Of a stretch of DNA of 64,000 nucleotides, positions 1 to 64,000 are shown piece after piece (the stretch's first letter is position 1; every line of letters begins with the position of its first letter). Origin of the DNA: Candidatus Liptonbacteria bacterium (GTDB lineage: Bacteria; Patescibacteriota; Minisyncoccia; UBA6257; 2-01-FULL-56-20). The notes under the pieces were generated by a model. That model was not told where the DNA came from. It saw only the letters and a program-made list of their open reading frames with translations, and searched no databases. The stretch lies in contig JACQKT010000018.1 of the NCBI GenBank assembly GCA_016204355.1, positions 4,987 through 68,986 on the forward strand. Direction: 5' to 3'. Position numbers and translations under genes: made by a program.

Positions 1-153
1 GACGTGCTCGACTTGCGCGTGCCCCTTATAGTCGGCAGGCATTACAATCAGACCGACAAAGAATCCCGCGAACGCGCGGCGATGGAGAAAATCTTCGCTC
101 GCTACAGGACATGGCAAGAACGCATCAGCAAGGTCGTCGAGAAATTCAGTTAG
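1..153 (+). CDS. 3' end of a gene running off the window start (partial); strand not fully resolved
   Basis: Frame +1 is open from the window edge to TAG at 151-153 and has a GC-rich third position (about 70%), unlike the AT-rich flank. A minus-strand frame (ATG at 195-193) is also open across the same bases. Confidence 0.3.
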   Translation, partial: DVLDLRVPLIVGRHYNQTDKESRERAAMEKIFARYRTWQERISKVVEKFS

Positions 154-7161: not shown

Positions 7162-7184
7162 TTACCTTAGAATAATTCAAACCC

Positions 7185-8987
7185 TCATTTTTTCAAAAGG
7201 TCGCGGAAAACTTTTGTCGGTACCACCACTCGCGACATTTCTTTAAGCTTCTTTTTGCCTTCTTTTTGCTTTTTCCAAAGCTTCATCTTCCTTGTTCTGT
7301 CGCCGCCGGTTTTGCCGAAGTTTCCCAAAAGCTTCTTCATCGCCGAGATGGTTTCCCTCGCAATTATACGGCCGCGCACTTTTGCCTGTACCGCCTGCAC
7401 GAATTGTTGTTTCGGTAAAAGTTCTTTCAGGCGTTCGACCGTAGTTCTCGCCTCGGATTCCGCTTCGTCCTTGAAAATTATCCTGGTTAGCGCGGATATC
7501 GGGTCTCCATTTACGAGTATTTCCAGTTTTTCCACCTCGGCAGGCGCTTCTCCCGCAACTTCGTAACTGAAAGATGCAAAACCCGAAGAAGCCGATTTTA
7601 TCTTGTCGTCGAATCCCCGCATAAGTTCTGCAAGGGGCATTCTCGCCGAGATAACGACGTAATTCCCGATGTTTTTTATTTCTATTATTTCGATGTGGAA
7701 CTTTTCGTTGAGCCCCAGAATTTGGTTTACAAATTCTGCCGGAGAAAATATTTCCACATCGATCATCGGCTGCAAAACTTTTTCCGGATTATCGGGAAAA
7801 TCGTTCGGGTCTTTTACAACTCTCGTTTCGCCGCCGCCTCTTACTGTATAGGCAGTCGACGGGAAACTTGCCAAAAACTCCAGCCCGAATTCCCTTTCGA
7901 GACGGCTTGTCGCAATTTCAAAATGCAGCTGGCCGAGAAACCCTACCTTCAACCCCCGCCCTAGAGCTTCGCTTGAATCCGGTTCGAATATCAAAGCCGA
8001 ATCGGTAAGATGCAGTCTCTCGAACGCCCTTTTCAGGTCTTCGAATTTGGTCTGCCCGTCCGGATATAAAGACACGAAAACAACTGGTGTCGGTTCCCTG
8101 TATCCTGGAAGCGACGCCCTTTCGGATTTGCGCGAAAACGGACCTGATTCAAAAATTGTATCCCCTATTTTAACAAGAGAAGGGTCTTTCATGCCCGTGG
8201 CCATGTATCCTATTTCGCCGGCAGAAATCTCTTTTCCGGGTTTAAGCTGAGGAGTGAAATATCCCAATTCTTTTATTTTGCACTTCGACTTCGCCGCAGC
8301 GAGTTCTATTTCGTCGCCTTCTTCGAATTTTCCGTCGAAAATTCTGACGAAAGCTATTATTCCCTTGTGATCGTCGTAAAGCGAGTCGAAAATAAGCGAA
8401 CGCGACGGCGACTCGGCAAAAACGTTTTTTGAGGAAGGCGCCGGGACTTTTTTCACGACCGCTTCGAGGAGCATCGGTACGCCTTCGCCGGTTTTTCCCG
8501 AGATGCGGAAGATTTCATTTTCGGCGACGCCTATCAGTTCCGCTAGAAGCTTTGCGGATTCGTCGGCTCGCGGCGGGTTCAAATCGATTTTGTTTATGGC
8601 TCCGATTATTTTCAAGCCGGCTTTTCTTGCCGCGCGAAAATTGGAAAGGGTCTGGGCTTGTATTCCTTTCGTCGCGTCGACCAAAAGTATCGCGCCCTCC
8701 ACTGCGGCAAGCGCGCGCGAAACCTCGTAAGAAAAATCCGAATGACCCGGCGTGTCTATCAGATTCAAAATGTAACTTTCCCCGTTGAGCGAGTAACTCA
8801 TGCGAACCGGCGCCATTTTTATGGTTATGCCGCGTTCTCTTTCAAGCTCAAGCTGGTCGAGATATTGGGGCTTCATACGTCGGGCTTCAACCGTTCCCGT
8901 CAATTCCAAAAGCCTGTCGGCCAGAGTCGATTTCCCGTGATCGATATGTGCGATTATTACGAAATTCCTTATATCTTCCTGATTCAT
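7185..8987 (-). CDS. lepA: elongation factor 4 (LepA)
   Basis: IRNFVIIAHIDHGKSTLADRL G1 motif and the LepA-specific basic C-terminal tail. Confidence 0.9.
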   Translation of the reverse strand: MNQEDIRNFVIIAHIDHGKSTLADRLLELTGTVEARRMKPQYLDQLELERERGITIKMAPVRMSYSLNGESYILNLIDTPGHSDFSYEVSRALAAVEGAILLVDATKGIQAQTLSNFRAARKAGLKIIGAINKIDLNPPRADESAKLLAELIGVAENEIFRISGKTGEGVPMLLEAVVKKVPAPSSKNVFAESPSRSLIFDSLYDDHKGIIAFVRIFDGKFEEGDEIELAAAKSKCKIKELGYFTPQLKPGKEISAGEIGYMATGMKDPSLVKIGDTIFESGPFSRKSERASLPGYREPTPVVFVSLYPDGQTKFEDLKRAFERLHLTDSALIFEPDSSEALGRGLKVGFLGQLHFEIATSRLEREFGLEFLASFPSTAYTVRGGGETRVVKDPNDFPDNPEKVLQPMIDVEIFSPAEFVNQILGLNEKFHIEIIEIKNIGNYVVISARMPLAELMRGFDDKIKSASSGFASFSYEVAGEAPAEVEKLEILVNGDPISALTRIIFKDEAESEARTTVERLKELLPKQQFVQAVQAKVRGRIIARETISAMKKLLGNFGKTGGDRTRKMKLWKKQKEGKKKLKEMSRVVVPTKVFRDLLKK

Positions 8988-15838: not shown

Positions 15839-16339
15839 ATGATTTTAGCGACGCATGCCGTGGTTGGAGCCGCCTCAGCTATCGTTTTCCGCGACAATCC
15901 CGCGATTGCATTGACTGTCGCTTTTTTGAGTCATTTCGTTCTCGATGCCATCCCTCATTGGCACTACAGGCTCCTTTCGAGAATAATCGATGCCTCTTTG
16001 CAATTCGGAGAAAAGCTCAATTTTAACGGGGAGTTTTTAAAAGACACCTTCCGCACCGGTATTGATTTCGGGGTCGGATTGGTTATTTCGCTTGCGATTT
16101 CGCAATCTTTTTATCCAGATTACTTCTGGCTGACGGCTTTCGGCGCTTTCGCCGGCGCTTTGCCTGACTTACTGCAAGTGATTTATGAAAGATTTCCGAA
16201 TACACCGCTCTATCATTTCAAAAAATTCCACGAAAACGTTCATGCAAAAACTTCTCTTGACGAACAACCGCTGGTCGGCATTTCCCAGCAGATAATCGTA
16301 TCAATAGCGGCGGCTTTTGTGATGATTTATTTTAGCTGA
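15839..16339 (+). CDS. membrane-bound metal-dependent hydrolase-like protein (YdjM/DUF457-like)
   Basis: Polytopic 166-aa protein with the HFVLDAIPHWH His/Asp motif reminiscent of DUF457. Confidence 0.45.
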   Translation: MILATHAVVGAASAIVFRDNPAIALTVAFLSHFVLDAIPHWHYRLLSRIIDASLQFGEKLNFNGEFLKDTFRTGIDFGVGLVISLAISQSFYPDYFWLTAFGAFAGALPDLLQVIYERFPNTPLYHFKKFHENVHAKTSLDEQPLVGISQQIIVSIAAAFVMIYFS

Positions 16340-16443
16340 TCTGCGTATCGTTCAAATCCAGCCACCCGAAAAGTTAGTCCTTCGACTTCGCTCAGGACAG
16401 CGAAATTCTAAAGCCCGCAAAAGTGGGCTAAGAATTTCAGCTG

Positions 16444-16517
16444 CGCGGGCGGCCGGATTTGAACCGGTGACCTTCCCCGTGACAGGGGGACGTTCTGCCA
16501 GGCTGAACTACGCCCGC
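16444..16517 (-). tRNA. tRNA-Asp (anticodon GUC)
   Basis: Reverse complement folds as GCGGGCG-UA-GUUC-AGCCUGGCA-GAAC-G-UCCCC-CUGUCAC-GGGGA-AGGUC-ACCGG-UUCAAAU-CCGGC-CGCCCGC-G (one A.C at 49-65). Confidence 0.7.
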
Positions 16518-32277: not shown

Positions 32278-33042
32278 ATGCGAAAAGGCACAATATTGAC
32301 CGGCGCCTTTCTTGTTTCGGCGCTTACGGTAACAATTTTTAACCAGGCGCGCGCGCAAACGAACTGCGATTTCAAAAACAACCTTGAGAAACTTTCGGTT
32401 GCAGAAGAAGCCTCGAAAATCGACGACGGCGCCGAGAATATAAAAAACGAGCTGTCGATAAGAAAAGAACTGCTTAATCAGGCGCTTGATTGTTCGATAA
32501 GCGATGCCCTGAGCCTCCAATCCGAAGTAAAATCAACTCAGGTAGGCTATTCTGACCTCAAAAATTATCAGGCAAGACTTGTATCCAAAATCGACGAAAT
32601 AATCGGATACTATCATAATCAAAAAGAAGTTGTTAAAGATCTCGGCATAGAAGGAAGCAAAATTTTTTCCGCGAATCTGAGAACATGGAGAGATTCCAAC
32701 TACGCTCCGATAGAAGAACTGGGCAAAAATTTCCCTATCTTTGCACGCAACCAGGACTTTCTTCAGACTGCGCAGAACAGGCTGTATCAAATAAGCTTGA
32801 CATTAAGGGCGCTTGAATTGGACGGTGATCAGGAAATAGGAAACCTCGTAAATCAGGCAAGAAGGCAAATCTACTCGGCTAATGAAGATAACGGTTACGC
32901 GGCGGACATTTATAAAAGGCTGTCGTGGCCGAACAATGTATCCGGCCTTGTTCTTTCAACACTCCAGCATTTGAAAGACGCCTATCAAAGCTTTTTTGAA
33001 ATCGGGAGCGAGGCCCAAAAAATAATATCCGAATCTAAGTAA
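32278..33042 (+). CDS. secreted hypothetical protein
   Basis: Signal peptide (…TIFNQARAQ) and a helical body, co-oriented with the sigma/anti-sigma pair. Confidence 0.5.
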   Translation: MRKGTILTGAFLVSALTVTIFNQARAQTNCDFKNNLEKLSVAEEASKIDDGAENIKNELSIRKELLNQALDCSISDALSLQSEVKSTQVGYSDLKNYQARLVSKIDEIIGYYHNQKEVVKDLGIEGSKIFSANLRTWRDSNYAPIEELGKNFPIFARNQDFLQTAQNRLYQISLTLRALELDGDQEIGNLVNQARRQIYSANEDNGYAADIYKRLSWPNNVSGLVLSTLQHLKDAYQSFFEIGSEAQKIISESK

Positions 33043-33052
33043 ATCAAGAAAC

Positions 33053-33081
33053 CAAGAGCCGCTTTTAAAAGCGGCTCTTGG
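33053..33081. terminator. bidirectional intrinsic terminator between convergent genes
   Basis: Perfect 11-bp stem CCAAGAGCCGC-ttttaaaa-GCGGCTCTTGG flanked by AAA/TTT, between the 32278..33042 (+) stop and the hup (-) stop. Confidence 0.6.
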
Positions 33082-33128
33082 TTTCTGCGGTACTTTTCCC
33101 TTTGCAAGCCTTCTGCCCGCAAAATTCT

Positions 33129-36042: not shown

Positions 36043-39000
36043 TTAGGAGCCGGCAGCGTACGAAACGGAGTTGACGGTTATCGGTATCGTGGTCGCCGGA
36101 ACGTTAAGTCCGGTTACACCTCCCGAAACCGCATCTGTCCATATCACGTTGCCTGCAGCGCTAATTGTAGCCGACAAGGTCTGCGACACACCGTTTTGCG
36201 CGGCACCCATGACTCCAGTCTGCGAAGAGTTAATTCGGAGAGTGAAGCTCTTGCTGGAACCGGCGCTGATAGTGTAGTTGTTGAGGTCGAACGACAAACT
36301 GGTCGTCGTGGAAGCCACAGCGTAGTACGAGCGGCCGTTAGCCGAGTCATACAGAGTGACATAACACGTTGTACAAGTGGCGACACTGCTGTTGCCAGTG
36401 CTCGTAGCGTTGAAGAAGTTTGTCGTCGAAGGACCGGAACCGCTGAAGGTAACCGTTATCGATTGGAGCTTCAGAGCGCCGGCGGAATCGGCCGCGAAGT
36501 TCAGGAGACCGATGTCATCGGTCGCCGATTTCGCGCGTCCGGTTGTAACACCGTTGGCAGTGCCAGTAAGCGTGAGTTTTGTTCTCAAGAGTGTCTGGGC
36601 ATTGCCGTTCGGAGACGAAGTAGCGACTGTTGCAGTCGCATTCGACGTCTGGCCGAGCACGGTCACGAGCTCAGCGGCTGTGTCGTTGCTCGGATCACCC
36701 GAGGTGTCGAACTTGAAGGTGTGCGCTTCGTTGTCTATCGCACCGCTCGAGCTGAACGAAGCAACGTCGCCCTTAAGCGTAAGGACAACCGAGTTGGACT
36801 TCGTTATGGTCACTGGGCTCGCAAAGTGGAACGTGTAGGTGTACGTGGTAGACGTACCGTTCACGCCTGCAGAACCGGCGCATCCCAACTGGCTGGCGCC
36901 ATTGTAGAGACAGAGGTTCTGGAAGCCCGTGGAGGTCGAGGTCGCGCTGACCGAGTCGGTCAAGCGCAGGTCGGTTACCTTCACGTCGTCGGCGTTCGAT
37001 GTCTCGGTGACGAGGAACGCGGCGAGGTTGTTGCCGGTTGAACCCATAACGATCTGGTTTGCGGACGGGTTGGAAGAATCGGCCGAAATCGTGATCGCTG
37101 GCTGGCCGGCGATGGCCACGTTCTGACCCGCGGTCGAGGTGCAGGTGACGGACGTGTACGAGGTCGCGCCGCTGCCTGTGCAGCTGCTGAGAGTCGTAGC
37201 TGTCGTCAGAGTACCTGACGCGTTCGAAAGAAGGTCGGCGTAAACGTCAACATACGTCGTGCCGCCGGAAGGAACCGTAAACGGTGCGCCGGAGAACGCG
37301 AATGTGCCGTTGGCACTCAGCGAAGCTTGCGTGCTGCCGAACTGCGTGCTTCCGACCATTACTTTCAGGTTTTGCATCGAGGCGCCGAAGAGAACCTGGA
37401 CCGAAACGTTCGATATCGACACTCCTTCAGCCGATGAGGCCGTCAGGGCGTACGAACCGATTTTCCGGTTGGTCGAATTTGCTGCGTAAGTCGGAGCTCC
37501 GAAAGCCGTGTTCTTGGCCGTGGTTAGCTGACTCGTCGCCAAAGTGAGGGCGGCTCCTGTCGCCGAACCGCTGTTCGCGGTCTGGCTCGAAGTCAAACCC
37601 TGCAAGTTGTTGTTGGTGGACGCTACCAAGCTGGCCGTTACGGTGCTGAAGTCGGCACCCGATTGTACGTCGCCTCTCAAAGACAAGACTCTGGTCGTGT
37701 TGGCCGGAATCGTGTAGTTGATCGGCGAGCTCGAGTTGCCGAAACACTTCGTAGCGGTTGTTGTGGCCGCGGATTCGGTTCCGTCAGTACACGACAAGGT
37801 TGTTGTCAGAGAGCTGATGGTGGAACCGACCTGACCGCCTGCATCATCGTCCAAGTGGACATTCTTGATGTAGCTGTCAAGCGTGTTTCCAGTGCCGCCA
37901 GTGAAAGCGAGCTGGAAGCTCAAGAACTTGACTTTGACCGGTTCGCCTGCCGCGTAGAAATCGAACTTGGCAAGTGTTACTCCGCTCTGACCCTTGGCAA
38001 TGTTGCCGGTCGGGGTGCTGGAGTCCTGAGTAACGGTTATGCTGCCCTGTTTGATGCTCACCTGCGTGCCGACGTTCGAACCTGCGGTTACAGGCGTGTT
38101 GTATTGCGAGTCAACCGCGTAAACGTCGTAGGCGTTCAAAATCTCAAATTGGAAGTTGAACGAAGGCGAACCCATCACGTCGGCGTAAACTTGAACGTTG
38201 TTCGCGCCGGTGTTGACGGTTGCAGGCGAAGCCGACAAATCGAAGTAGGCCGAGCCGTCGGATGCGACCGCGGCGAGCGTTTGTCCTACTTGCGTGCCGT
38301 TAACCATAAGTTTCACGTTCCTGATGTCGGCTTTGTTGGCCGAACCGATAACGGTGAACTTTATGTTCTTCAAGTACGTCTTGCTGTTGGCTCCCGTGAA
38401 AGTGAAAGCTCCCACAAGGTTGTTCTGGGTGCCTGCCGTCACTGAGGTTCCGATAGAAGACGAAGCAACTGTTATGCTCGCGATGGACGGGTTTGAAACC
38501 GTGGTCATCGTGAACGTGTTTCCGTTAACCGGGACTCCCGTTTCCGTTATGGAATTTCCGGAAGCGTCCATTGAAGAAACGCTGTCCGCTGAAGCCACCT
38601 GGAAGGAAACCGTGTTTCCGGCGTTGACGCTCGAAGAGATGTCAACCTGCAGCCAGAGCTCTCTTGTCTGTCCGGCGGCAACGTTAAGGCCTAAGCCCGA
38701 GAACGTGAGAACGCCGTTAGAGAGAGACTGGTATTGCGCGATTACTTTGCCTCCTTCGACAAGGTAAGCGCCGGTAATGTTGTTGTCAGCAACGACTCCG
38801 ACTTTCGTGAATTTAAGATCCGAAACGGTGACGCCGCTGGCTGTTCCAGCCGTAAGGTTTACGGCCAAAATCGAATTTCTTGCCGACCCGGCAATCAGAG
38901 AACCTGCAGCCGGATTGTTGGCAGAAAGCGAAACTTTAAGGCCCGAAGCCGGAGCAGGAACCGTTGTTCCTCCGCCAGTCGTACCTCCCGTGGTTCCGCC

Positions 39001-39438
39001 CATTGAGGCAATCTTGGCCCTTGTTATGGGACCGAAGTACCCCACAGCCGGTGAAACGCCGTTTGCAGCCTGCCATTTGGCAACCGCGGCCTGTGTCAGC
39101 GAACCAAAGTATGTAGTCTCATTGCCCGGCGAACCTGCGCCGCTCGCGGCAACTTGCGCGCCGTTGGCGTTGAGAAACTGCTGAAGAGCCCTTACGTCAT
39201 CTCCTGTCGAACCCACTGTGAGGCTGCGGGTGAAGTTGTATGAAGTAGTGACACCTCCTTGTGCTGAATTAAGCTGGGCCTGTAATTGCTGTATCTGCGC
39301 GAGCAGTGCGGCAATTTGAGCCTGTAAATCGGCGACCGACTGAGCCTGGGCAACTGGAACCAAGAGAAGCGCTCCTGACATCCACACACTGGTGGTGAGA
39401 GTAAGCGCCGCTGATGTTATTTTTTTGCTTGTGCTCAT
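36043..39438 (-). CDS. giant Ser/Thr/Gly/Ala-rich secreted surface protein with N-terminal peptidoglycan-binding domain
   Basis: Signal peptide, a QAQ coiled coil, a PG_binding_1-like block (GSTGDDVRALQQFLNANGA...VAKWQAANGV) and then about 950 aa of low-complexity T/S/G/A-rich predicted beta-repeats. Locally GC-rich. Confidence 0.7.
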   Translation of the reverse strand: MSTSKKITSAALTLTTSVWMSGALLLVPVAQAQSVADLQAQIAALLAQIQQLQAQLNSAQGGVTTSYNFTRSLTVGSTGDDVRALQQFLNANGAQVAASGAGSPGNETTYFGSLTQAAVAKWQAANGVSPAVGYFGPITRAKIASMGGTTGGTTGGGTTVPAPASGLKVSLSANNPAAGSLIAGSARNSILAVNLTAGTASGVTVSDLKFTKVGVVADNNITGAYLVEGGKVIAQYQSLSNGVLTFSGLGLNVAAGQTRELWLQVDISSSVNAGNTVSFQVASADSVSSMDASGNSITETGVPVNGNTFTMTTVSNPSIASITVASSSIGTSVTAGTQNNLVGAFTFTGANSKTYLKNIKFTVIGSANKADIRNVKLMVNGTQVGQTLAAVASDGSAYFDLSASPATVNTGANNVQVYADVMGSPSFNFQFEILNAYDVYAVDSQYNTPVTAGSNVGTQVSIKQGSITVTQDSSTPTGNIAKGQSGVTLAKFDFYAAGEPVKVKFLSFQLAFTGGTGNTLDSYIKNVHLDDDAGGQVGSTISSLTTTLSCTDGTESAATTTATKCFGNSSSPINYTIPANTTRVLSLRGDVQSGADFSTVTASLVASTNNNLQGLTSSQTANSGSATGAALTLATSQLTTAKNTAFGAPTYAANSTNRKIGSYALTASSAEGVSISNVSVQVLFGASMQNLKVMVGSTQFGSTQASLSANGTFAFSGAPFTVPSGGTTYVDVYADLLSNASGTLTTATTLSSCTGSGATSYTSVTCTSTAGQNVAIAGQPAITISADSSNPSANQIVMGSTGNNLAAFLVTETSNADDVKVTDLRLTDSVSATSTSTGFQNLCLYNGASQLGCAGSAGVNGTSTTYTYTFHFASPVTITKSNSVVLTLKGDVASFSSSGAIDNEAHTFKFDTSGDPSNDTAAELVTVLGQTSNATATVATSSPNGNAQTLLRTKLTLTGTANGVTTGRAKSATDDIGLLNFAADSAGALKLQSITVTFSGSGPSTTNFFNATSTGNSSVATCTTCYVTLYDSANGRSYYAVASTTTSLSFDLNNYTISAGSSKSFTLRINSSQTGVMGAAQNGVSQTLSATISAAGNVIWTDAVSGGVTGLNVPATTIPITVNSVSYAAGS

Positions 39439-39458
39439 TTGGTAATTTTTTTTCGACT

Positions 39459-39731
39459 TTATCCTCCCAACTTTTTGGACTTCAAGTAGCGTTTTAGGAC
39501 TCGATTAAGGTAATTTTTGCCCCAGCCGGTTTTAAGAAATTTTTCCCTGGCAAATGCGTCTTGTTGATTAAGAAAAATTTCTGAGTAAATTAGCTTGAGT
39601 GGTATCCTATTTTTTGTTGAGTAAACGCCGCCTGAATTATGCAATCTCAACCTCTTGGTTAAATTATTTGTGCACCCAACATAGTTATGCCCACCAGCCC
39701 CGCTTTTCAAAACGTAAACGAAGTGCGGCAC
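39459..39731 (-). CDS. GIY-YIG nuclease domain protein (90 aa)
   Basis: HFVYVLKSGAGGHNYVGCTNNLTKRLRLHNSGG matches the GIY-...-YVG core. GTG start. Confidence 0.8.
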   Translation of the reverse strand: MPHFVYVLKSGAGGHNYVGCTNNLTKRLRLHNSGGVYSTKNRIPLKLIYSEIFLNQQDAFAREKFLKTGWGKNYLNRVLKRYLKSKKLGG

Positions 39732-39753
39732 GGGTCCAAAAAGTTGGGAGGAT
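39461..39753. repeat. perfect 20-bp inverted repeats bracketing the GIY-YIG ORF
   Basis: ATCCTCCCAACTTTTTGGAC at 39461-39480 (overlapping the last codons and stop) and its exact reverse complement GTCCAAAAAGTTGGGAGGAT at 39734-39753 (3 nt upstream of the GTG start). Confidence 0.6.
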
Positions 39754-39789
39754 TAATTTTAATTTTTTCGTTTATCGACCTAGTTTATA

Positions 39790-42674: not shown

Positions 42675-45273
42675 CTTTAAGTTCGCCGCGGATTATTTTG
42701 TCCGCAAGCGTGTCCAAAATCAGTTTCTGAATCAGTCTTTTCAGCGGTCTGGCGCCGAATTCCGGGTCGAATCCCTGTGCCGCAAGGTACTTCTTTGCGG
42801 CAGGATCAATCGTTATTTTTATCTTCTTTTCTTCAAGCCTCTTTCCTATCTGGGCAAGTTGTATGTCGACTATCTTTTCTATGTTCTCAGGGCGGAGCGG
42901 GTTGAAAATTATTATTTCGTCGATCCGGTTCAAAAATTCCGGGCGGAAACTATCGCGAAGCGCATTTTTTATTTTCCCGCGATAATTCTGTTCGTCTTCT
43001 TCCTTGCTGCTTTCATCGGAAGAACTGAATCCGAGCCCAGAAATAGCCCGTATGTACTGGCTGCCGACATTGGATGTCATTATTATTATCGAATTTTTGA
43101 AGTTGACGAACTTGCCCTTGCTGTCGGTGAGCCGCCCATTGTCGAGTATCTGGAGCAAAAGATTGAAAACCTCCGGATGGGCTTTTTCTATCTCGTCGAA
43201 AAGTATCAGGCTGTAGGGTCGATGCCTGATAATTTCCGTCAGCTGCCCGCCCTCTTCGTGTCCGACGTACCCAGGCGGCGAACCTATAAGCCGGCTTATA
43301 GAATGCCGCTCCATGTATTCGGACATATCTATTCTCACCAGGGCTTTTTCGTCGTTGAACATGAACTCCGCGAGAGCGCGCGCGAGTTCCGTTTTACCGA
43401 CTCCGGTCGGTCCCAAAAACATGAACGAGCCGAGAGGGCGGTTTATGTCGGAAAGGCCGGCACGGGCCCGTCTCAAGGCGCTTGCAACCGACTGTATCGC
43501 CTCGTCCTGCCCTACAACTCTATCGTGAAGTTCTTCCTCTATTTTGACCAGTTTTTCGCTTTCGGTTTCGAGCATTCTGTAAAGAGGTATGCCTGTCCAG
43601 GAGGAAACGACTGCGGCGACATCTTCCTTGTCGACCGCTTCCTTCAAAAATTGCCTGTCGCTTTCGGTGTTTTTCGAGCCCCGCCTTGTTTTCATGCCGA
43701 CAAAATTTTTCTTTTCGAAAGCCTCGAAATCCTTTTGCGCCTGAGGCAATTCTCCGTAAGTTATCTGGGCGAGGCGCTCGAGATTTCCTTCCCTTTCGGC
43801 GATTTCGGCTTCACGTTTCAGATTTTCAACTTTTTGGCGCAGCTGGTGAAGGGTTTCGAATTTTATTTTTTCCGCGTGCCATTTCGAAGAAAGTTCATCA
43901 TTCTCTTCTTTGTATTTTTTGAGTTCCGAATTTATTTTCTTAAGCCGCTCGGAATTTTTTGCGCTTCCCTCTTTCGAAAGCGCCTGTTTTTCGACTTCGA
44001 GTTTCGTTATTTCCCTGCGAACACGGTCTATCTCGGTCGGCAGGCTCTCGGTCTCGAGACGCCTTGCGGAAGCGGCTTCGTCGATCAGGTCCACCGCTTT
44101 GTCAGGAAGAAATCTGTCGGTTATGTATCTTGCAGAAAGCTGGACTGCGGCCGTAATCGCCTCGTCGCTTATCCGGAGTCCGTGATGTATCTCATATTTT
44201 TCCTTGAGCCCGCGTAGTATCGAAACGCTGTCTTCCAGGCTCGGTTCTTCGACGATTATCGGCTGAAGCCTTCTCTCGAGCGCCGGGTCTTTTTCTATAT
44301 AGCGTTGGTATTCGCGGATTGTCGTGGCGCCGATGCAATGCAATTCTCCTCTTGCCAGCGCCGGTTTCAGAAGATTTGAAGCATCCACGGCTCCTTCGGC
44401 GGCTCCGGCTCCGACTATAGTGTGGATTTCGTCTATAAAAAGTATAAGCTGGCCGCTGGCGTTTTTTATTTCCTTTATAAAGGCCTTGAGCCTGTCTTCG
44501 AACTCGCCCCGGAATTTCGTTCCGGCTATGAGCGCTCCGAGATCAAGCATTGTTATCTGTTTGTCTTTAAGCGGCTCGGGAACTTCGCCTGCCACAATTT
44601 TTTGTGCCAATCCTTCGACAATCGCCGTTTTCCCTACACCCGGCTCGCCTATAAGAACCGGATTGTTTTTGGTACGCCTGCTCAAAACCTGTATAACGCG
44701 CCTTAATTCCGATTCCCGCCCTATAACGGGGTCCAGCTGCCCGGATTTGGCCTTTTCCGTCAGATTTATCGCGTATTTTTCGAGAACCTGGAACTTGCTT
44801 TCCGGCGTTTCGTCTGTAACTCTGACCGAGCCGCGAAGCTGGGCGAGAACGCGTATCATCGATTCGCGTTTTATTCCGAAGCGGCCGAGAATTTGCTGCG
44901 CCAAAGAATCGACGTCGAGAATTGCCAACAAAAGATGTTCGCACGAAATAAATTCGTCTTTTTGCTGGGATGCGATTTTTGCCGCCTGGTCGAGCACTCG
45001 CATCAATTCCTGAGAAAGATAAAGTTGTCCGACATTGGAACCGCTTACCATTTTCGGCAGGCGGTTCATTTCGGCTTCGAGCTCCCGATGAAGCTTTTCG
45101 AGATTTACTCCCGAACGCAGCAGCATCGGCTGAACGAGCGACTGTTGGTCCTCCAGCAAACTTTCCAGAAGATGCATCGCTTTCAGTTCGCCGTGGCTTT
45201 TTTGCGCCGCAAGCTCCTGCGCATTCTGAAGCGCTTCCTGGGCCTTAATTGTAAAACGGTGAAAATTCGGCAT
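42619..45273 (-). CDS. clpB: ATP-dependent chaperone ClpB
   Basis: Clp N-domain repeats, two AAA+ modules (GEPGVGKTAIVEGLA; GPTGVGKTELARALA) separated by a long coiled-coil M-domain. Confidence 0.9.
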   Translation of the reverse strand: MPNFHRFTIKAQEALQNAQELAAQKSHGELKAMHLLESLLEDQQSLVQPMLLRSGVNLEKLHRELEAEMNRLPKMVSGSNVGQLYLSQELMRVLDQAAKIASQQKDEFISCEHLLLAILDVDSLAQQILGRFGIKRESMIRVLAQLRGSVRVTDETPESKFQVLEKYAINLTEKAKSGQLDPVIGRESELRRVIQVLSRRTKNNPVLIGEPGVGKTAIVEGLAQKIVAGEVPEPLKDKQITMLDLGALIAGTKFRGEFEDRLKAFIKEIKNASGQLILFIDEIHTIVGAGAAEGAVDASNLLKPALARGELHCIGATTIREYQRYIEKDPALERRLQPIIVEEPSLEDSVSILRGLKEKYEIHHGLRISDEAITAAVQLSARYITDRFLPDKAVDLIDEAASARRLETESLPTEIDRVRREITKLEVEKQALSKEGSAKNSERLKKINSELKKYKEENDELSSKWHAEKIKFETLHQLRQKVENLKREAEIAEREGNLERLAQITYGELPQAQKDFEAFEKKNFVGMKTRRGSKNTESDRQFLKEAVDKEDVAAVVSSWTGIPLYRMLETESEKLVKIEEELHDRVVGQDEAIQSVASALRRARAGLSDINRPLGSFMFLGPTGVGKTELARALAEFMFNDEKALVRIDMSEYMERHSISRLIGSPPGYVGHEEGGQLTEIIRHRPYSLILFDEIEKAHPEVFNLLLQILDNGRLTDSKGKFVNFKNSIIIMTSNVGSQYIRAISGLGFSSSDESSKEEDEQNYRGKIKNALRDSFRPEFLNRIDEIIIFNPLRPENIEKIVDIQLAQIGKRLEEKKIKITIDPAAKKYLAAQGFDPEFGARPLKRLIQKLILDTLADKIIRGELKDGGKVKVNFKSDSLVFNT

Positions 45274-45282
45274 AAGTTTACG

Positions 45283-45384
45283 AAGTACGAATAATTACGA
45301 AAATACGAATTTTGCGGCGCTAATAACTTTGTTGAAGTTATTCGTATTTTCGTACTTGATTAGCAATTTCGTAAATGTACGGTA
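45283..45384. repeat. palindromic TACGAAT-family element upstream of clpB
   Basis: TACGAAAATACGAAT (45296-45310) is the reverse complement of ATTCGTATTTTCGTA (45340-45354). Inner hairpin AATAACTT-tgttg-AAGTTATT. Shares ATTCGTATTTTCGTAC and TTCGTAAATG with the 47612 element. Confidence 0.55.
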
Positions 45385-45648
45385 TCACGAATTCGGGCGT
45401 TTTTCAAGGGTCGCATTCACGGTCATTTCATTTTCGTCGCGCAATATTTTAATTGTAATCGTTTCTCCCACTCTCAGGTCCGAGATAGCGCTCCCGAGCG
45501 GATTGTAGGGTTGAGCGTTGCTTTGGCTTTGCGCTTCCTGCGAAGAAGTGGCGCTTTTTCCGGTAAAAGGAGAAATGAAATCATTCCAGAGGTCGTTAAA
45601 AAAGTTTGCGTTGGCAAGCGGCGCCGAGAGAACGGGCGCCATGATCAT
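45385..45648 (-). CDS. PDZ-domain fragment (possible remnant of an HtrA-type protease gene)
   Basis: 87-aa ORF whose C-terminal 35 aa (ISDLRVGETITIKILRDENEMTVNATLEKRP) look like the end of a PDZ domain. No protease domain upstream. Confidence 0.3.
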   Translation of the reverse strand: MIMAPVLSAPLANANFFNDLWNDFISPFTGKSATSSQEAQSQSNAQPYNPLGSAISDLRVGETITIKILRDENEMTVNATLEKRPNS

Positions 45649-45699
45649 TCCCGCAAAAATTCCCGCCGCAAGAACTAAAATCGTTTTTTGTCGAAATCA

Positions 45700-47055
45700 T
45701 TATTTTCCATGCGAGGGTATGAGTAATTTTTTAGTTATTTTTAAAGCGCTGTCAATATCCTTTTTGGAAGTCGGCCTGCCAAAAGTGAAACGAATGCTCC
45801 GGCGGGCGCGTTTCTCGGAAAAACCCATCTCTTTTATCACATAAGAGGGTCCCGAAGACCGCGCGGAGCACGCAGATCCTGCCGAAGCCGCGAGACCTGC
45901 CAAATCGAAACTCGTCAACAAATCCTGCGCTTCATAATCCGGAAAATGAACATTCAAAAAATTCGGGAGGGTTTTCCTCGCGCTGCCGTTGCGCTCCGCT
46001 CTCGGATATATTTTTTTCAATTCCTTCCAAAAATAATCTCGCAGTGCCGATGTTCTTTTGCTTTCCGAAACGCGCAGACGGGGAACAATCTCCGCGGCTT
46101 TTGCGAATCCGACGATCAAAGGAATGTTTTCGGTGCCGGACCGGATCCCGAATTCCTGGCCGCCCCCCATTATAATTGGGTTTAAGATGTAGGAATTATG
46201 ATTCATGAGCCCCCTGTTTCTTAATAAATCTTTTTTCTTAAATCCTAATTCGCGCGCATAAAGGGCTCCGGCGCCTTTCGGACCGTAAATTTTGTGAGCG
46301 GATAAAGTCATAAGATCGACTCCCAGCCTGCCTACATCGCAATCGAAAAATTGGAACGCTTGAACGGCATCTGTATGAAAGAGGGGGTAGAAGCTGGAAT
46401 TTGTTTCGGCTTTCCGCTTTTTGAAATCATTAATTATTTTTTTTATTTCGAAAAGCGGCTGTATCGTGCCGATTTCGTTGTTGGCGTACATGACCGACAC
46501 CAAAACTGTCCGCTCATTCAGCGATTCTTCGAGTTTTTTCAAATCGACCAGTCCCTCCTCCGATACCGGAATGAAAGTTACTTCAACTCCGTCTTTTTCC
46601 AGCTCGTGCGCAGTTTCAAGAACCGATTCATGCTCGATAGACGAAACGATGACGCGAAGCGGAAATCGCTTTTTGAAGAAGCTCTCGGAGGTGCGCCGGG
46701 TTTGGTCTCCAAAGGAGCCGGCGCGCCGAGAGCGCAGGTGGGTGCTAGTCGTCGGAGTGAGCAAACCGCCGGTTCCCAAAAAAGCGATTTCCGCCGCTTT
46801 CACCGCTCCCCGCAACGCAAGGTTGTTAGCTTCCGTAGCCGAGCCGGTAAAAACGACTTCACGGAATCCCGCGCCTATCGTTTTTGAAATAGCTTCGCGC
46901 GATTCGTCGAGTGCCCTTATCGCTTCCTGACCGAAATAATGCAGCGAGCCGGCGTTGCCGTATTTTTCGGCAAAGTACGGACGCATCGCTTTTTCCGCTT
47001 CCGGCGCAACCGGAGTAGAAGCGGCGTAATCAAAATAGAGTCTGGCTCTTGGCAT
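45700..47055 (-). CDS. cysteine desulfurase (class V aminotransferase; IscS/NifS-like)
   Basis: SAHKIYGPKGAGALY PLP-lysine motif, SSIEHESVLET and ATEANNLAL blocks. Carries an in-frame insert of about 44 aa between the latter two (see findings). Confidence 0.8.
   Translation of the reverse strand: MPRARLYFDYAASTPVAPEAEKAMRPYFAEKYGNAGSLHYFGQEAIRALDESREAISKTIGAGFREVVFTGSATEANNLALRGAVKAAEIAFLGTGGLLTPTTSTHLRSRRAGSFGDQTRRTSESFFKKRFPLRVIVSSIEHESVLETAHELEKDGVEVTFIPVSEEGLVDLKKLEESLNERTVLVSVMYANNEIGTIQPLFEIKKIINDFKKRKAETNSSFYPLFHTDAVQAFQFFDCDVGRLGVDLMTLSAHKIYGPKGAGALYARELGFKKKDLLRNRGLMNHNSYILNPIIMGGGQEFGIRSGTENIPLIVGFAKAAEIVPRLRVSESKRTSALRDYFWKELKKIYPRAERNGSARKTLPNFLNVHFPDYEAQDLLTSFDLAGLAASAGSACSARSSGPSYVIKEMGFSEKRARRSIRFTFGRPTSKKDIDSALKITKKLLIPSHGK
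46659..46793. repeat. GC-rich palindromic insertion inside the cysteine desulfurase ORF
   Basis: Terminal inverted repeats GCGGAAATCGCTTTTTG / CAAAAAAGCGATTTCCGC enclose about 100 nt holding nested palindromes (GCTCTCGG..CCGAGAGC, GCGCCGG..CCGGCGC, GGTTTG..CAAACC). Confidence 0.5.
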
Positions 47056-47605
47056 CGCTAAAAGTCAAAATTACCGATTCTCCGTTCATGGAGTCGGGAA
47101 TGATGAGCTCGTTTTTAATTCTATACAAATCGTATAAATCTTTCGTGAGTTTTACGTCCTGAAGACAATACTTCTTAAGTTCTTCTATCTCGCCGTTTTT
47201 ATAAAGAGTTATCGCTTCGTATCCTTTCCTTTCTTTGCCGATGCCGAGATTCGCGCGCGAAAGTTTGTCGAGGCTTATTTTTTTGCCGAATTTTATCTCT
47301 ATTTCCTCAAGAAGATCTATTCTTTCCTTTTTCCGAAGTTCCGGCTTTATTCCAGGCAATCTGCCGAAATGCGAGTCCAGGACCGGTATGTCATATGTAT
47401 TGATGCTGAAGCCGACGAGGCGCAATGCCGAATCGAAAAGTTTTGCCGCTTCCTCCAGTTCGTTTTCACCGAAAGAAAAATATTTGTTTTTCGAATAGGA
47501 ATAAGCACAGACCATCGAAATCTCGAGCGCATTGAAATTGTTCCAGCCAACCCCGGGGTCGGTGAAAAAATTTTTTGTTTCTATATCGAAAACAAGGGTG
47601 TCCAT
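47030..47605 (-). CDS. RNase H-like 3'-5' exonuclease (YprB/PolB-exo-like)
   Basis: N-terminal VFDIETKN Exo I motif with downstream conserved acidic residues. Confidence 0.5.
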   Translation of the reverse strand: MDTLVFDIETKNFFTDPGVGWNNFNALEISMVCAYSYSKNKYFSFGENELEEAAKLFDSALRLVGFSINTYDIPVLDSHFGRLPGIKPELRKKERIDLLEEIEIKFGKKISLDKLSRANLGIGKERKGYEAITLYKNGEIEELKKYCLQDVKLTKDLYDLYRIKNELIIPDSMNGESVILTFSDAKSQTLF

Positions 47606-47681
47606 GGAAATTTTACGAAATTACTAATTTTTACGAATATACGAATTCGTATTTTCGTACTCATTCGTAACTTCGTAAATG
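47606..47681. repeat. palindromic TACGAAT-family element
   Basis: TTACGAATATACGAATTCGTATTTTCGTAC near-perfect palindrome centred on CGAATTCG, followed by TTCGTAACTTCGTAAATG. Confidence 0.55.
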
Positions 47682-48179
47682 CTAAACGTGCCTGTCGGCT
47701 ACGTTGGAAGCGGCATAACTGACCGGTTTTGTTACCGGTTCGAAATCGTGAGCGCGTATCATGCCGACGACTTCCTGTATCATCGCTTTCGTCGGTCCGT
47801 TTTCGCCGACATCAGCGTGTATCTCGAAATCCCATTCGGGCATTTCACGCCCTTCGGCGTCGGAAAGCCTTTTCAATTCGGTAAGAATTTCCTTTCCGAG
47901 GTCTATTGATATCAGAACTTCGCGTATTATCCTGTCGCGGAGCGTATGGAATTTTCCGAGCTGAGCGCGGCGCCAAAAATATCTTCCTCCGTTTCCTACC
48001 CGATGAACCACCGCGGCAGTGACGAAATCGGCCCTGCCGTCGGCAAGCCTTTCGGAATCCGTTCCTATCATTATTTTGTATTTGCGTTTCGGCTGTTCCT
48101 TCATAAAGCGGATTATCTCCTCCGCGACCCTATGAACGGTTAGCTTGATTCCGAAAGAACTGTTGAAAAATTCGGGCAT
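47682..48179 (-). CDS. DUF458/YkuK-like protein (predicted RNase H-like fold)
   Basis: 165 aa with the KIMIGTDSE motif typical of YkuK-family proteins. Confidence 0.45.
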   Translation of the reverse strand: MPEFFNSSFGIKLTVHRVAEEIIRFMKEQPKRKYKIMIGTDSERLADGRADFVTAAVVHRVGNGGRYFWRRAQLGKFHTLRDRIIREVLISIDLGKEILTELKRLSDAEGREMPEWDFEIHADVGENGPTKAMIQEVVGMIRAHDFEPVTKPVSYAASNVADRHV

Positions 48180-60671: not shown

Positions 60672-63113
60672 ATGAGCAACATAGAAAAAAGGGAAATAAC
60701 AAAAGAGCTTCAGGAATCGTATCTCAATTACGCGATGTCCGTCATAGTCAGCCGCGCCCTTCCCGACGTACGCGACGGAATGAAACCGGTTCAGCGGCGC
60801 ATTTTGTGGGCAATGTGGGATAGCGGACTGACCCATCTCGCCAAGACCAGGAAATCGGCGAACGTGGTTGGCGAAACAATGGCTCGCTATCACCCTCACG
60901 GCGATACTTCAATCTATGACGCGCTGGCGCGAATGGTGCAGGACTGGTCACTGCGCTATCCGCTTGTCACAGGTCAGGGAAACTTCGGTTCGATAGATGG
61001 CGACTCGCCTGCGGCCATGCGTTACACGGAAGCCAAGCTTTCCAAAATAAGTGAGGAACTGCTCGTCGACATAGAAAAGGAAACTGTCGACTGGCAGGAT
61101 AACTACGACGGTACGCGCCAGGAGCCGAAAGTCCTTCCCGCGAAACTCCCGAACCTTCTTCTTAACGGAACGGTTGGGATTGCCGTGGGAATGGCGACGA
61201 ACATTCCTCCGCACAATCTCAACGAAGTCGCCGACGCCATTCTTCATTTTGCGGAAAATCCCGATGCCGACACCGACGACCTCCTTAAATTCGTAAAAGG
61301 CCCCGATTTCCCAACAGGAGGCGTTATCTTCGACAAAAAAGCCATTCGCGAAGCCTATTCTTCCGGAAAAGGCCCCATTCTGGCGCGCGCGAAAGCCGAC
61401 ATACAGGAAAGAAAAAGCAGGCAATTCGATATCATAATCACCGAAATTCCGTACCAGGTGAACAAATCGGAACTGATAAAACACATGGCGGAGCTGGTGC
61501 AGAACAAAAAGATAGAAGGGATAAGGGACATCCGCGACGAATCGGACCGTGAAGGATTGCGCATCGTCGTCGAGCTTAAATCGGACGCGAACCCGCAGAA
61601 AATTCTGAACCAGCTTTATCAATACACCGACCTTCAGAAATATTTTCATATGAATATGATTGCACTCGTCGACGGAATACAGCCTCAGCTTTTGACGCTG
61701 AAGGATGTGATTGCCGAACATCTCGAATACAGAAAAAAAATCGTACGGTGCCGGACCGAATTCGACCTCAAAAAAGCCAAGGAGCGTGCGCATATTCTTG
61801 AAGGACTGCACAAGGCTCTCGGAGTGATAGACAAAATAATCGCGGCGATAAAAAAATCTAAAGACAGGAATGACGCGCATCAGAATCTCGTAAAGCAATT
61901 CAAATTGAGCGACATCCAGGCGAACGCGATACTCGAAATGCGTCTCCAAACCCTGGCCGCGCTCGAAAGAAAAAAAATAGAAGACGAATTGAAAGAGAAG
62001 CTCGCGCTGATAAAAGATCTGGAGACGATACTCAAAAGCCCGGCGAAAATACTGGGCATAATAAAAACGGAAGTAAAAGAGTTGAAGGGAAAATACGGCG
62101 ACGACAGAAAAACTTCCGTTGTAGACGGCGGCGTGAAAACTTTCAGCGAAGAAGACCTGGTTCCAGAAGAAGAAGCGGTTATAACACTGTCGTCGGGAGG
62201 ATACATAAAACGCCTTCCCCCCGATTCGTTCAAGGCGCAGAAGCGCGGCGGGAAAGGGTTGATAGGGTCGGAAGTGAGCGAAGAAGATTTCATAACGCAA
62301 TTTTTCGCAGCAGGAACCCACGACAACATACTTTTCTTCACCGACCGCGGCAGGGTTTTCCAGACGAAGGTTTACGAAATTCCGGCAGCGAGCAGGGTTT
62401 CCAAGGGCAGGGCGATACATAACTTTCTCGAACTGCCGTCGGATGAAAACGTCAGCGCAGTTGTGAACTACAGCGAAAAGAAAGAGCCCTCCGAAGGCAA
62501 GTATCTGATAATGGTCACCAAAAGCGGCGTCATCAAAAAAACGCCGCTTGAGGATTTCAAAAATATACGCCGGACCGGCATCATCGCGATTAAACTCTCC
62601 GCCCAGGGCGGAAAAAAAGGAGACAGCCTCAAATGGGCGCGTCTATCAAGCGGCTCCGACCAGATAATCCTGGGAACCAAAAACGGCCAGGCGATAAGAT
62701 TCAAGGAAACGCAGGCTAGGCCGATGTCGAGAACGGCGAGCGGAATCAGGGCGATAAAACTGAAGAAGAACGACGAAGTCGCCGGGTTTGATATAATAAA
62801 AAGCGAAACGAAAGAAGCGAAAGTTCTCGCGGTGATGGCGAACGGCTTCGGGAAACAAACCCCTCTGAAGGAGTATAAAATCCAGAACAGGGGCGGCTCC
62901 GGGATAAAGATAGCGAATATCACCCCGAAAACCGGCTCGTTGATCGCGACCCAGCTTATCACCGAACAAACCGAAATTCTCGCACTTTCGGAAAAAGGAC
63001 AGGTTATAAGAACGGGTTTGTCTGGAGTAAGGACCACGGGGCGTTCCGCGCAGGGAGTCCGTATAATGAATCTCAAGCAGGGAGACAAGCTTGCCGGAAT
63101 AGTTTTAATATAA
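60672..63113 (+). CDS. gyrA: DNA gyrase subunit A
   Basis: YAMSVIVSRALPDVRDGMKPVQRRIL and HPHGDTSIYDALARM (GyrA signature including the quinolone-resistance-determining region (QRDR)), six C-terminal beta-pinwheel blades. 813 aa. Confidence 0.95.
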   Translation: MSNIEKREITKELQESYLNYAMSVIVSRALPDVRDGMKPVQRRILWAMWDSGLTHLAKTRKSANVVGETMARYHPHGDTSIYDALARMVQDWSLRYPLVTGQGNFGSIDGDSPAAMRYTEAKLSKISEELLVDIEKETVDWQDNYDGTRQEPKVLPAKLPNLLLNGTVGIAVGMATNIPPHNLNEVADAILHFAENPDADTDDLLKFVKGPDFPTGGVIFDKKAIREAYSSGKGPILARAKADIQERKSRQFDIIITEIPYQVNKSELIKHMAELVQNKKIEGIRDIRDESDREGLRIVVELKSDANPQKILNQLYQYTDLQKYFHMNMIALVDGIQPQLLTLKDVIAEHLEYRKKIVRCRTEFDLKKAKERAHILEGLHKALGVIDKIIAAIKKSKDRNDAHQNLVKQFKLSDIQANAILEMRLQTLAALERKKIEDELKEKLALIKDLETILKSPAKILGIIKTEVKELKGKYGDDRKTSVVDGGVKTFSEEDLVPEEEAVITLSSGGYIKRLPPDSFKAQKRGGKGLIGSEVSEEDFITQFFAAGTHDNILFFTDRGRVFQTKVYEIPAASRVSKGRAIHNFLELPSDENVSAVVNYSEKKEPSEGKYLIMVTKSGVIKKTPLEDFKNIRRTGIIAIKLSAQGGKKGDSLKWARLSSGSDQIILGTKNGQAIRFKETQARPMSRTASGIRAIKLKKNDEVAGFDIIKSETKEAKVLAVMANGFGKQTPLKEYKIQNRGGSGIKIANITPKTGSLIATQLITEQTEILALSEKGQVIRTGLSGVRTTGRSAQGVRIMNLKQGDKLAGIVLI

Positions 63114-63210
63114 TGCGAATGATGCCAATTTTATCGCGAATGACACGAAAATATTTTAGACTGTTTTTCGCATAATTCGCGTCTTATTTCGCATCATTCG
63201 CATTATATTA
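63106..63210. repeat. about 105-bp palindromic GCGAAT-family element exactly filling the gyrA-stop to next-ATG gap
   Basis: TAATATAATGCGAATGATGC (63106-63125, containing the gyrA TAA) and its perfect reverse complement GCATCATTCGCATTATATTA (63191-63210, abutting the ATG at 63211). Interior has CGCGAAT / ATTCGCG. Confidence 0.6.
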
Positions 63211-64000
63211 ATGAACCTATCTTCAAAGCAGACAGTTATCATAGGAACGACAATAGCCGTTCTTTTGCTTATCGCAGTATTGGTTCTCTTCAATCTTCGC
63301 CCCAGCGAAACTGCGGGAGTGCAGCTCGTGATGTGGGGCTTTGAAAAAGAAACTGTCATAAAGCCCATCATAAGCGCGTACAGACAATCGCATCCGAACG
63401 TAAACGTAACTTATAAGGAGGTAAGTAAAAATAATTATGAAACTACGCTCCTGAACGCGCTTGCGTCGGGACAGGGGCCGGATATTTTTCCGGTTCATAA
63501 CAGAAGTCTGATAAAAAACGCCAACGTTCTTTATCCTGCGCCGCCTTCGCAGTTCAACACGAGCCAGCTTGAAAATCTTTTCCCCGCCGAAGTCGCGCAG
63601 GATTTCGTTTTGACATCCGGCGGCAATACCCAAACCCGTCAGGTGTACGCGTTGCCTACTTATTTCGATACTCTTTCTTTGATTTACAACAAAGAATTGT
63701 TTGACCAGGCGGGAATCGCGAATCCCCCGTCGACATGGGAACAGTTTCAGTCCGATATTCCCAAATTGCGGATAATTTCCGTAAGTGGACAAATAACGAG
63801 AGCGGGCGCCGCTCTGGGAGGTTCGCAAAAAACGGTGACAAACGCGGTTGATATTTTGAACGCGATAATGCTTCAAAACGGGGTCGCAATGACGACCGGA
63901 AATTACGCGTCGTTCGCTTCCGAAAAGGGAATCGGCGCTTTTAACTTTTACCTTCGTTTCGCGGATTCCGGTTCCACCTATTACACATGGAACGAAACCC
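63211..64000 (+). CDS. extracellular solute-binding protein (ABC transporter substrate-binding, family 1-like), 3' partial
   Basis: ATG at 63211 with an open frame to the window end (hand-translated, no stops). N-terminal signal-anchor, then an SBP-like sequence (…GQGPDIFPVHN…YALPTYFDTLSLIYNKELF…). Not in the ORF track because it has no stop. Confidence 0.55.
   Translation, partial: MNLSSKQTVIIGTTIAVLLLIAVLVLFNLRPSETAGVQLVMWGFEKETVIKPIISAYRQSHPNVNVTYKEVSKNNYETTLLNALASGQGPDIFPVHNRSLIKNANVLYPAPPSQFNTSQLENLFPAEVAQDFVLTSGGNTQTRQVYALPTYFDTLSLIYNKELFDQAGIANPPSTWEQFQSDIPKLRIISVSGQITRAGAALGGSQKTVTNAVDILNAIMLQNGVAMTTGNYASFASEKGIGAFNFYLRFADSGSTYYTWNET

Follow-up and report, generated by a model that had tools for sequence, protein, structure and literature searches.

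The 64,000-nucleotide stretch of DNA analysed here in its entirety (the window) comes from a Candidatus Liptonbacteria bacterium of the Patescibacteria, or Candidate Phyla Radiation (CPR) (assembly GCA_016204355.1, contig JACQKT010000018.1, positions 4,987 to 68,986), and carries on its minus strand a gene for a NifS/IscS-like cysteine desulfurase that contains, in frame, a GC-rich palindromic segment. The 451-residue product matches Pfam family PF00266 (Aminotran_5) at E = 2e-62 and cysteine desulfurases in the PDB at E = 1e-77, and is 100% identical to P0001, a deposited protein of a Candidatus Liptonbacteria metagenome-assembled genome. PDB homologues, which lack the insert, align on both sides of residues ~89-133 and leave these without counterpart, in agreement with an original prediction, made from the letters alone, of a GC-rich palindromic in-frame insertion in this gene. 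That prediction put ~58 residues between the conserved motifs ATEANNLAL and SSIEHESV; there are 56, of which about 45 are extra. The reading frame through the insert is open, and the catalytic residues Lys255 and Cys396 are invariant in an alignment of 81 sequences. The best 120 homologues all belong to CPR/Patescibacteria (50-61% identity, 386-510 residues), and homologues from outside the CPR are shorter (~367-375 residues). As discussed below, the segment is very probably a member of a family of palindromic, Y-shaped DNA repeats of ~150 nt that is dispersed in CPR/Patescibacteria, is here called family A and resembles the palindromic elements of Rickettsia.

In composition the segment stands apart from its surroundings, with 61.0% GC at 46659-46794 (66% between its two arms) against 48.0% in the rest of the gene and 47.1% in the window, where the GC content of 136-nt windows has a standard deviation of 6.4 and only 1.8% of them are as GC-rich. 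As RNA, the minus strand of 46650-46800 folds at -68.9 kcal/mol (z = -4.9), a stability reached by none of 200 shuffles. The sequences named in the original prediction lie where it placed them, with some corrections of detail. Its 17-bp terminal inverted repeat (GCGGAAATCGCTTTTTG at 46659-46675, CAAAAAAGCGATTTCCGC at 46777-46794) is perfect over 16 bp (46659-46674 with 46779-46794); to extend it to 17 bp, a 1-nt bulge must be allowed. All three nested dyads are present: GCTCTCGG (46681-46688)/CCGAGAGC (46726-46733) and GCGCCGG (46693-46699)/CCGGCGC (46718-46724) form genuine helices in the consensus structure of the family, both within core hairpin 2 (Table 1), which also has an apical CTCC/GGAG hairpin and a conserved 3' bulge, GACCAAAC (46700-46707, plus strand), whereas GGTTTG (46699-46704)/CAAACC (46762-46767) falls outside the conserved structure. 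GGTTTG shares positions with GTTTGGTC (46700-46707), which is the conserved unpaired bulge GACCAAGC of the family read as its reverse complement; GACCAAAC is the form that this bulge takes in the window copy. Core hairpin 1, in intact copies, has an 11-13 bp stem and a CTCCAGCGG loop. The inter-arm segment carries the family motifs GGAACCGG, CTCTCGG, GGAGACCAAaC and CTCCGAGAG, and the core measures ~104 nt in the window copy and ~115 nt in the family.

Table 1. Cysteine desulfurase gene of the window and the inserts within it (arms are given in the mRNA sense).
Feature	Position	Strand	Description	Evidence
Cysteine desulfurase gene (NifS/IscS-like, Aminotran_5)	45700-47055	minus	451 aa	Open reading frame list, Pfam, PDB matches
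Whole family-A element	46651-46800	minus	Y-shaped palindromic repeat: outer stem and two-hairpin core	Covariance model, nhmmer, fold
Residues encoded by the element	residues ~86-135		KAAEIAFLGTGGLLTPTTSTHLRSRRAGSFGDQTRRTSESFFKKRFPLR, in host frame	
Outer stem, 5' arm	46779-46794	minus	GCGGAAATCGCTTTTT	Perfect 16-bp inverted repeat
Core hairpin 1	46737-46772	minus	Decayed in the window copy	Fold compared with consensus
Core hairpin 2	46681-46733	minus	Intact	Fold, consensus structure
Segment between arms	46675-46778	minus	66% GC, holds the conserved core	Alignment, per-column conservation, GC
Outer stem, 3' arm	46659-46674	minus	AAAAAGCGATTTCCGC	Perfect 16-bp inverted repeat
Second in-frame insert, residues ~271-287	46195-46245	minus	KKKDLLRNRGLMNHNSY	Decayed AT-rich hairpin, FRIQNLEFR..NPKSYILNP type

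Dispersal of the element in CPR genomes

A covariance model, R1, was built from nine orthologous copies at the loop occupied in the window (site 1). It scores the window copy at 122 bits (E = 2.5e-26) and seven of the eight other site-1 copies at 139-163 bits, and an nhmmer profile made from 77 copies of other origin, with the window copy left out, has its sole match in the window at 46661-46798 of the minus strand (E = 3e-17). More than 90 further copies were found by covariance model in CPR genomes and metagenomes, and a scan of metagenome contigs for the exact core pattern gave at least 120 loci, with at least 88 covariance-model hits (54 + 34). The homologue loci themselves supplied extra copies: two in L039, one at site 2 of another cysteine desulfurase and the other in the reading frame of tsaD, on the same contig; one each in the intergenic DNA of L009 and L049; and others in L179 and L180. 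A genome-contig scan with the whole protein, which covered 46 loci, yielded none with a site-1 element but gave the extra copies in L009 and L039.

In-frame hosts comprise at least ten identified families, namely cysteine desulfurase (at two sites), TsaD, ParB, RF2, DprA, FolD, MnmA, an aminotransferase and two glycosyltransferases. Pfam confirmed ParB, PCRF/RF-1 (RF2), DprA, FolD, a PMT_2 glycosyltransferase, TsaD and MnmA, and inspection added an aminotransferase of class I/II together with a GT2-like membrane protein. An exhaustive hidden Markov model search of representative proteins with a profile of the insert peptide contributed MnmA, in which three clusters have the insert at the same site, and also a small membrane-protein family. 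The same 48-column profile gave 801 candidates in a word-indexed database of 5.8 billion proteins, none of them real, and missed the source proteins too, the method being unsuited to short low-complexity queries. Roughly two in three copies lie in intergenic DNA, many of them adjoining stop codons and beginning within a few bases of an upstream one. Several contigs carry two copies, and in one gene (L180; P0087) there are two. Genic copies occur in both orientations; ParB carries both (L080 versus L092), and at site 1 itself the element of L051 is inverted, its flanks being collinear with those of L049 and its interior 76% identical only as the reverse complement. Scanning viral contigs with the core pattern gave four chance matches, none positive with the covariance model, and thus no sign of phage carriage.

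On the evidence of these sequences, then, the family is dispersed: the same core recurs in unrelated housekeeping genes, in two loops of cysteine desulfurase, in both orientations and in intergenic DNA after stop codons. In a neighbour-joining tree of the 120 homologues, which is shallow and has some copies of a subfamily B mislabelled, proteins that carry the element are intermixed with alleles that are empty or hold a remnant. This site-1 "family B", which scores 70 bits, represents a divergent branch of the family-A element. Copies in head-to-head pairs of opposite orientation, ~5-50 nt apart, were observed at L088 9854-10174, L155 7634-7998 and L159 9880-10191, each copy with its own long outer stem.

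A conserved core between locus-specific stems

When copies from different loci are compared in pairs, their cores are 80-94% identical and their outer stems are at random-level identity. Core and outer-stem identities are 0.94 and 0.53 for L115 and L118, 0.86 and 0.29 for the two copies in L078, and 0.84 and 0.08 for L081 and L106, and stem identity spans 0.08-0.53 at core identities of 0.81-0.94; across 68 non-redundant copies no base is conserved in the outer-stem columns, and the core boundary has a short, semi-conserved TTTTC../..GAAAA pairing. The mobile and conserved part is, as far as such alignments tell, the inner two-hairpin core of ~115 nt, and the outer inverted repeats, called terminal inverted repeats in the original prediction, are stems peculiar to each locus and not conserved ends of the element. 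In L072, L102 and L093 these stems resemble canonical intrinsic terminator hairpins, and L084 sits nested in a ATTCGCAA-type palindrome. Shorter site-1 alleles (P0094, P0097, P0058, P0064) keep pieces of the core and look like internal deletions. The window also holds, at 33047-33086, a perfect 40-bp palindrome without a core (20-nt arms, no spacer, centre TTTT/AAAA), which begins 4 nt past the stop codon of an open reading frame at 32278-33042 and scores 22 bits with R1 on the stem alone; it resembles the outer stem of a core-less family-A element and may be a target hairpin or a terminator.

These observations bear on the suggestion, also present in the original prediction, of a miniature inverted-repeat element, which in its classical form (a miniature inverted-repeat transposable element, or MITE) would be a deletion derivative of an insertion sequence, with transposase-binding terminal inverted repeats, moved in trans with target-site duplication. 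Bacterial MITEs (ERIC, Correia/NEMIS, RUP, BOX, Nezha) are small, non-autonomous, hairpin-forming and multi-copy, and are sometimes fused in frame to open reading frames (PMC10969869), and family A shares with them its small size, hairpin formation, multi-copy state and in-frame fusions. Its non-coding, palindromic nature, the contigs with more than one copy and the semi-conserved pairing at the core boundary also speak for such an origin. What defines MITEs, however, is that they have target-site duplications and that their conserved terminal inverted repeats are also those of a parent insertion sequence, and as far as repeat conservation and duplications were tested family A departs from both: identity of the outer repeats is at random level where cores remain 80-94% identical, and none of 21 copies with perfect stems of at least 10 bp is flanked by a direct repeat of 3 bp or more (2-bp matches occur in three, against 1.3 expected). 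No parent insertion sequence was found, a crude hunt for half-element patterns being uninformative (its 5' pattern was too strict) and no systematic transposase search having been made. With neither conserved terminal repeats nor target-site duplication, the element is therefore not a textbook MITE, and a MITE origin appears improbable. What stands of the earlier suggestion is that a palindromic, non-coding repeat with dispersed copies landed in frame in a permissive loop of a pyridoxal phosphate enzyme.

A palindrome probably kept at the level of DNA

Conservation of the fold is best seen at site 1, where a peptide of the same type as that of the window copy (..GTGRSSAPAAEAAL..SR..GDQA.R.SETFR.K..) occurs in more than 10 homologues. 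The DNA of eight of these adopts one common Y fold, a long outer stem with two inner hairpins, at -70 to -103 kcal/mol; unpaired motifs (GGAACCGG, the CTCCAGCGG loop, the GACCAAGC bulge and CTCCGAGACATTCC) are kept across site-1 copies while stem sequences vary, and RNAalifold on the nine copies gives 50 pairs, 36 of them with compensatory changes. In the family at large (copy length 126-163 nt, median 156), 90.4% of cells are paired in 51 copies, against 40-48% with slid partners, and 49 of the 50 pairs show double-sided changes, with one-sided (wobble) changes in ~2% of cells. Among the 68 non-redundant copies, in the orientation of the model, G.T pairs (1.8-2.7%) are not above A.C pairs (2.3-6.0%). 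Pairing is kept by paired changes. That it is almost exclusively Watson-Crick and that orientation relative to host genes is mixed suggests that the palindrome acts, or is maintained, at the level of DNA and not as a selected mRNA structure. As a side observation, on the strand opposite to the model in the A6 alignment, G.T exceeds A.C about 2:1 in the outer stem (71 versus 32) and shows no such bias in the inner helices (45 versus 35); the outer-stem excess could reflect a strand-specific mutation bias or a weak tolerance at the RNA level on that strand.

Three further explanations may be weighed against these data. An independent small RNA gene, or mobile non-coding RNA, that merely overlaps the coding sequence would account for the conserved loops and bulge and the covarying stems, and the opposite-strand G.T excess in the outer stem would fit it. 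The low wobble fraction (6% or less), the lack of an Rfam match and the decay or internal deletion of many copies whose host genes are still intact make it very unlikely. A cis-acting mRNA structure selected for expression of the host gene (through translational pausing, mRNA stability or regulation) could likewise draw on the very stable fold, the strong covariation among the nine site-1 copies and their conserved unpaired motifs, and the original prediction had raised an RNA-level structured insert as one option. It is disfavoured by the presence of the core in unrelated genes and intergenic DNA and in both orientations, inverted even at site 1, by the rarity of wobble pairs, which in the sense orientation are no commoner than A.C mismatches, and by Rfam 15, which gave no match overlapping the element in window positions 45000-48000 at E <= 10 and none in seven other copies at E <= 1; we regard it as highly improbable. 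Finally, the segment may be imagined to have formed where it now lies, through template switching during replication or the growth of a hairpin from a run of codons for a surface loop, and never to have been mobile. Such a process yields Watson-Crick-only covariation and perfect locus-specific stems, and the internal-deletion remnants point to a locus unstable in replication, but it cannot account for the 80-94% identity of cores between unrelated loci, which lie in at least ten identified protein families and in intergenic DNA; for the core it is refuted by the dispersed copies, which leaves it hardly credible as a full account, though template switching may explain how the stems are made or kept. 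Also set aside were attC sites, retron msr/msd, small ribozymes and tRNA-like short interspersed elements, whose defining motifs the element lacks, whose genomic context is different and for which Rfam and ARAGORN gave no hits.

Consequences for the host protein

An AlphaFold model of the host protein (81-sequence alignment, mean predicted local distance difference test score, pLDDT, 83.5) has residues 97-127 as coil with pLDDT below 50, between a helix at 73-92 and a strand at 134-138. The insert is predicted to be expressed together with the gene, as RNA and as protein, and to form a tolerated surface loop of the enzyme that is disordered and rich in Ser/Thr/Arg/Gly, its translation being likely because there is no stop codon in the host frame and the frame is kept. 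All genic copies found lack stop codons in the host frame and leave that frame intact (frame-breaking copies would have been classed as intergenic), and copies hold on average 2.5 of six frames open, against 1.1 for shuffles, an excess that fits survival of stop-free copies.

An untranslated segment, removed like an intron or bypassed by the ribosome, would have precedents of a kind. Mitochondrial GC clusters and "byp" elements of yeasts are GC-rich, palindromic, mobile inserts in AT-richer genomes that also lie inside protein-coding genes, and byps measure 27-55 nt and are skipped by the ribosome; those of Magnusiomyces mitochondria are said, in work of 2014 by Lang et al., to be GC-rich palindromes bypassed in this way. 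A GC-rich, very stable palindrome inside a coding gene of a moderately AT-rich (47% GC) genome recalls them. Family-A elements differ in being ~150 nt long, stop-free, frame-preserving and, it appears, translated. The open frames and kept frame of the genic copies would be needless for excision or bypass, and Rfam gave no ribozyme or intron match; removal or bypass thus seems most implausible.

Insertion hot spots and other hairpins

The extra length of CPR homologues of the enzyme sits in four loops (query residues ~86-133, 217-220, 271-287 and 361), which carry varied low-complexity peptides. Identical peptide families recur at different loops (for example STNNES.TNKRIRKF.TNSLFAD, NNELRIKNN..IIHNSSF, QETRDKRQ..SMSHVSC, FRIQNLEFR..NPKSYILNP), which argues for several further mobile hairpin families besides family A. 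At the DNA level the loop peptides are hairpins (L003, z = -5.5), and in other homologues all four hot-spot loops hold simple hairpins. The host gene of the window has a second in-frame insert in one of these loops (Table 1), unrelated in sequence to family A, without counterpart in PDB homologues and with pLDDT below 50 (fold z = -0.25); homologous inserts lie at the same loop in P0002, P0004 and P0070.

Several other palindromic sequences were observed. A class I/II aminotransferase at L139 (~7100-7700) holds a family-A insert and an unrelated TRINTNRNTDKHECISVNP-type insert in one protein, so that invasion by more than one family is not special to cysteine desulfurase. Intergenic AT-rich palindromes of ACGAAT/ATTCGT units lie in the window at 45293-45357, 47612-47679 and 63105-63211, and translation of this unit gives the TNKRIRKF-type in-frame peptides of homologues in other genomes. 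A 23-nt inverted repeat (39458-39480/39734-39756, 96% complementary, arms 253 nt apart) stands directly upstream of a gene for a 1131-residue Ser/Thr/Ala-rich surface protein (36043-39438, minus strand), and a stable hairpin at 16350-16465 (z = -3.7 when folded as DNA) is placed between the end of an open reading frame (15839-16339) and a tRNA-Asp gene (16443-16517, minus strand), overlapping the end of the latter. A fold scan of the whole window and a list of its inverted repeats gave other hairpins (16350-16465, 33047-33086, 39458-39756, 63105-63211) and no second family-A copy.

Likeness to known palindromic elements

Rickettsia palindromic elements (RPE-1 to RPE-10; Ogata et al. 2000, as reviewed in PMC10969869) are dispersed sequences of ~150 bp found in frame in unrelated metabolic genes. 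Family A resembles them in size, in its palindromic form and many dispersed copies, in apparently placing its peptide where the protein tolerates insertion, in the location of the copies found, of which roughly a fifth to a third lie within unrelated housekeeping genes, in frame, and the others between genes, and in its host, a host-dependent bacterium with a reduced genome. It differs in occurring in Patescibacteria, whereas RPEs occur in Alphaproteobacteria, and in hitting the same loops repeatedly, one site having it in either orientation. Conservation in RPEs extends over the whole element, and most of them are decaying, whereas in family A a two-hairpin core is conserved, the outer stems are locus-specific and most copies keep their pairing well. 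The family-A element very probably works like an RPE; descent from RPEs, for which Rfam has no family, is unlikely, the host being a Candidatus Liptonbacteria bacterium.

Another parallel is offered by REP (repetitive extragenic palindromic) sequences and the related BIME and REPIN, which are by definition extragenic, are made of units of 20-40 bp and are associated with RAYT transposases, and by the insertion sequences IS1397 and ISKpn1, which target REP hairpins. Structure-conserved palindromes after genes are common to REP and family A, and there is here a precedent for mobile DNA entering the loop of a palindrome, which would give locus-specific stems. Many family-A copies, however, are intragenic and in frame, so that by location the definition of REP does not fit them.

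A proposed origin and the points that weigh against it

We propose that the window copy entered a permissive loop of cysteine desulfurase, and that the element would be selfish or neutral DNA which selection leaves in harmless sites and frames, as has been proposed for the Rickettsia elements. The palindrome may serve as a hairpin or cruciform for movement, or may be kept symmetrical by hairpin-templated repair. Regarding the stems, we lean, tentatively and with somewhat less than even confidence, towards insertion of the core into the tips of pre-existing hairpins, such as terminators and earlier in-frame palindromes, because of the terminator-like stems, the nested copy of L084, the core-less palindrome at 33047-33086 and the fact that the hot spots are hairpin loops; insertion of this kind would explain both the locus-specific stems and the recurrent hot spots. 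Alternatively, insertion may make an inverted duplication of the target flank, or gene conversion may homogenise the cores while hairpin-templated repair keeps the stems symmetrical. A more far-reaching possibility is that the core represents a new kind of structure-directed mobile DNA, inserting at hairpin tips or with inverted flank duplication, leaving perfect locus-specific stems and no target-site duplication, and that, together with the simpler hairpin families at the same loops, it would be a main generator of lineage-specific insertions that make CPR proteins longer; this we consider doubtful.

Several points weigh against a dispersed, RPE-like repeat. The window holds a single copy of the element even when R1 is run with filters off, and yet the core, whose uniqueness in the genome would, according to the original prediction, weaken the mobile-element reading, recurs often in related genomes. 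Neither a transposase nor any other enzyme that could mobilise the element was identified, and no systematic search for transposases was made. The nine site-1 copies may share one old insertion, in which case the kept pairing needs selection or concerted evolution, which a model of pure junk does not predict. The sample of copies is biased by gene calls towards those in frame, and the translation of the insert is argued from its open frame and the integrity of the gene. No pair of filled and virgin sites was found, the only "empty" allele examined being the L155 counterpart of the L159 copy, which was rejected as an empty site: it is a deletion remnant with core bases and AAAG microhomology.

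Significance

CPR/Patescibacteria make up a very large share of bacterial diversity and have tiny genomes, and their proteins often have unexplained insertions. We found no paper linking palindromic elements of this kind to CPR/Patescibacteria, a statement that holds for the literature searched. Family-A inserts inflate apparent protein divergence and can break homology searches and domain calls, and R1 is ready for masking or tracking them. Standard models of transposition do not account for stems that differ from locus to locus around a conserved core, and the mechanism of insertion is now a defined and testable question. In-frame palindromic repeats in tolerant loops of essential enzymes provide a concrete source for some of the insertions in CPR proteins, and a phenomenon so far treated as a speciality of Rickettsia extends to an unrelated, host-dependent and genome-reduced lineage.

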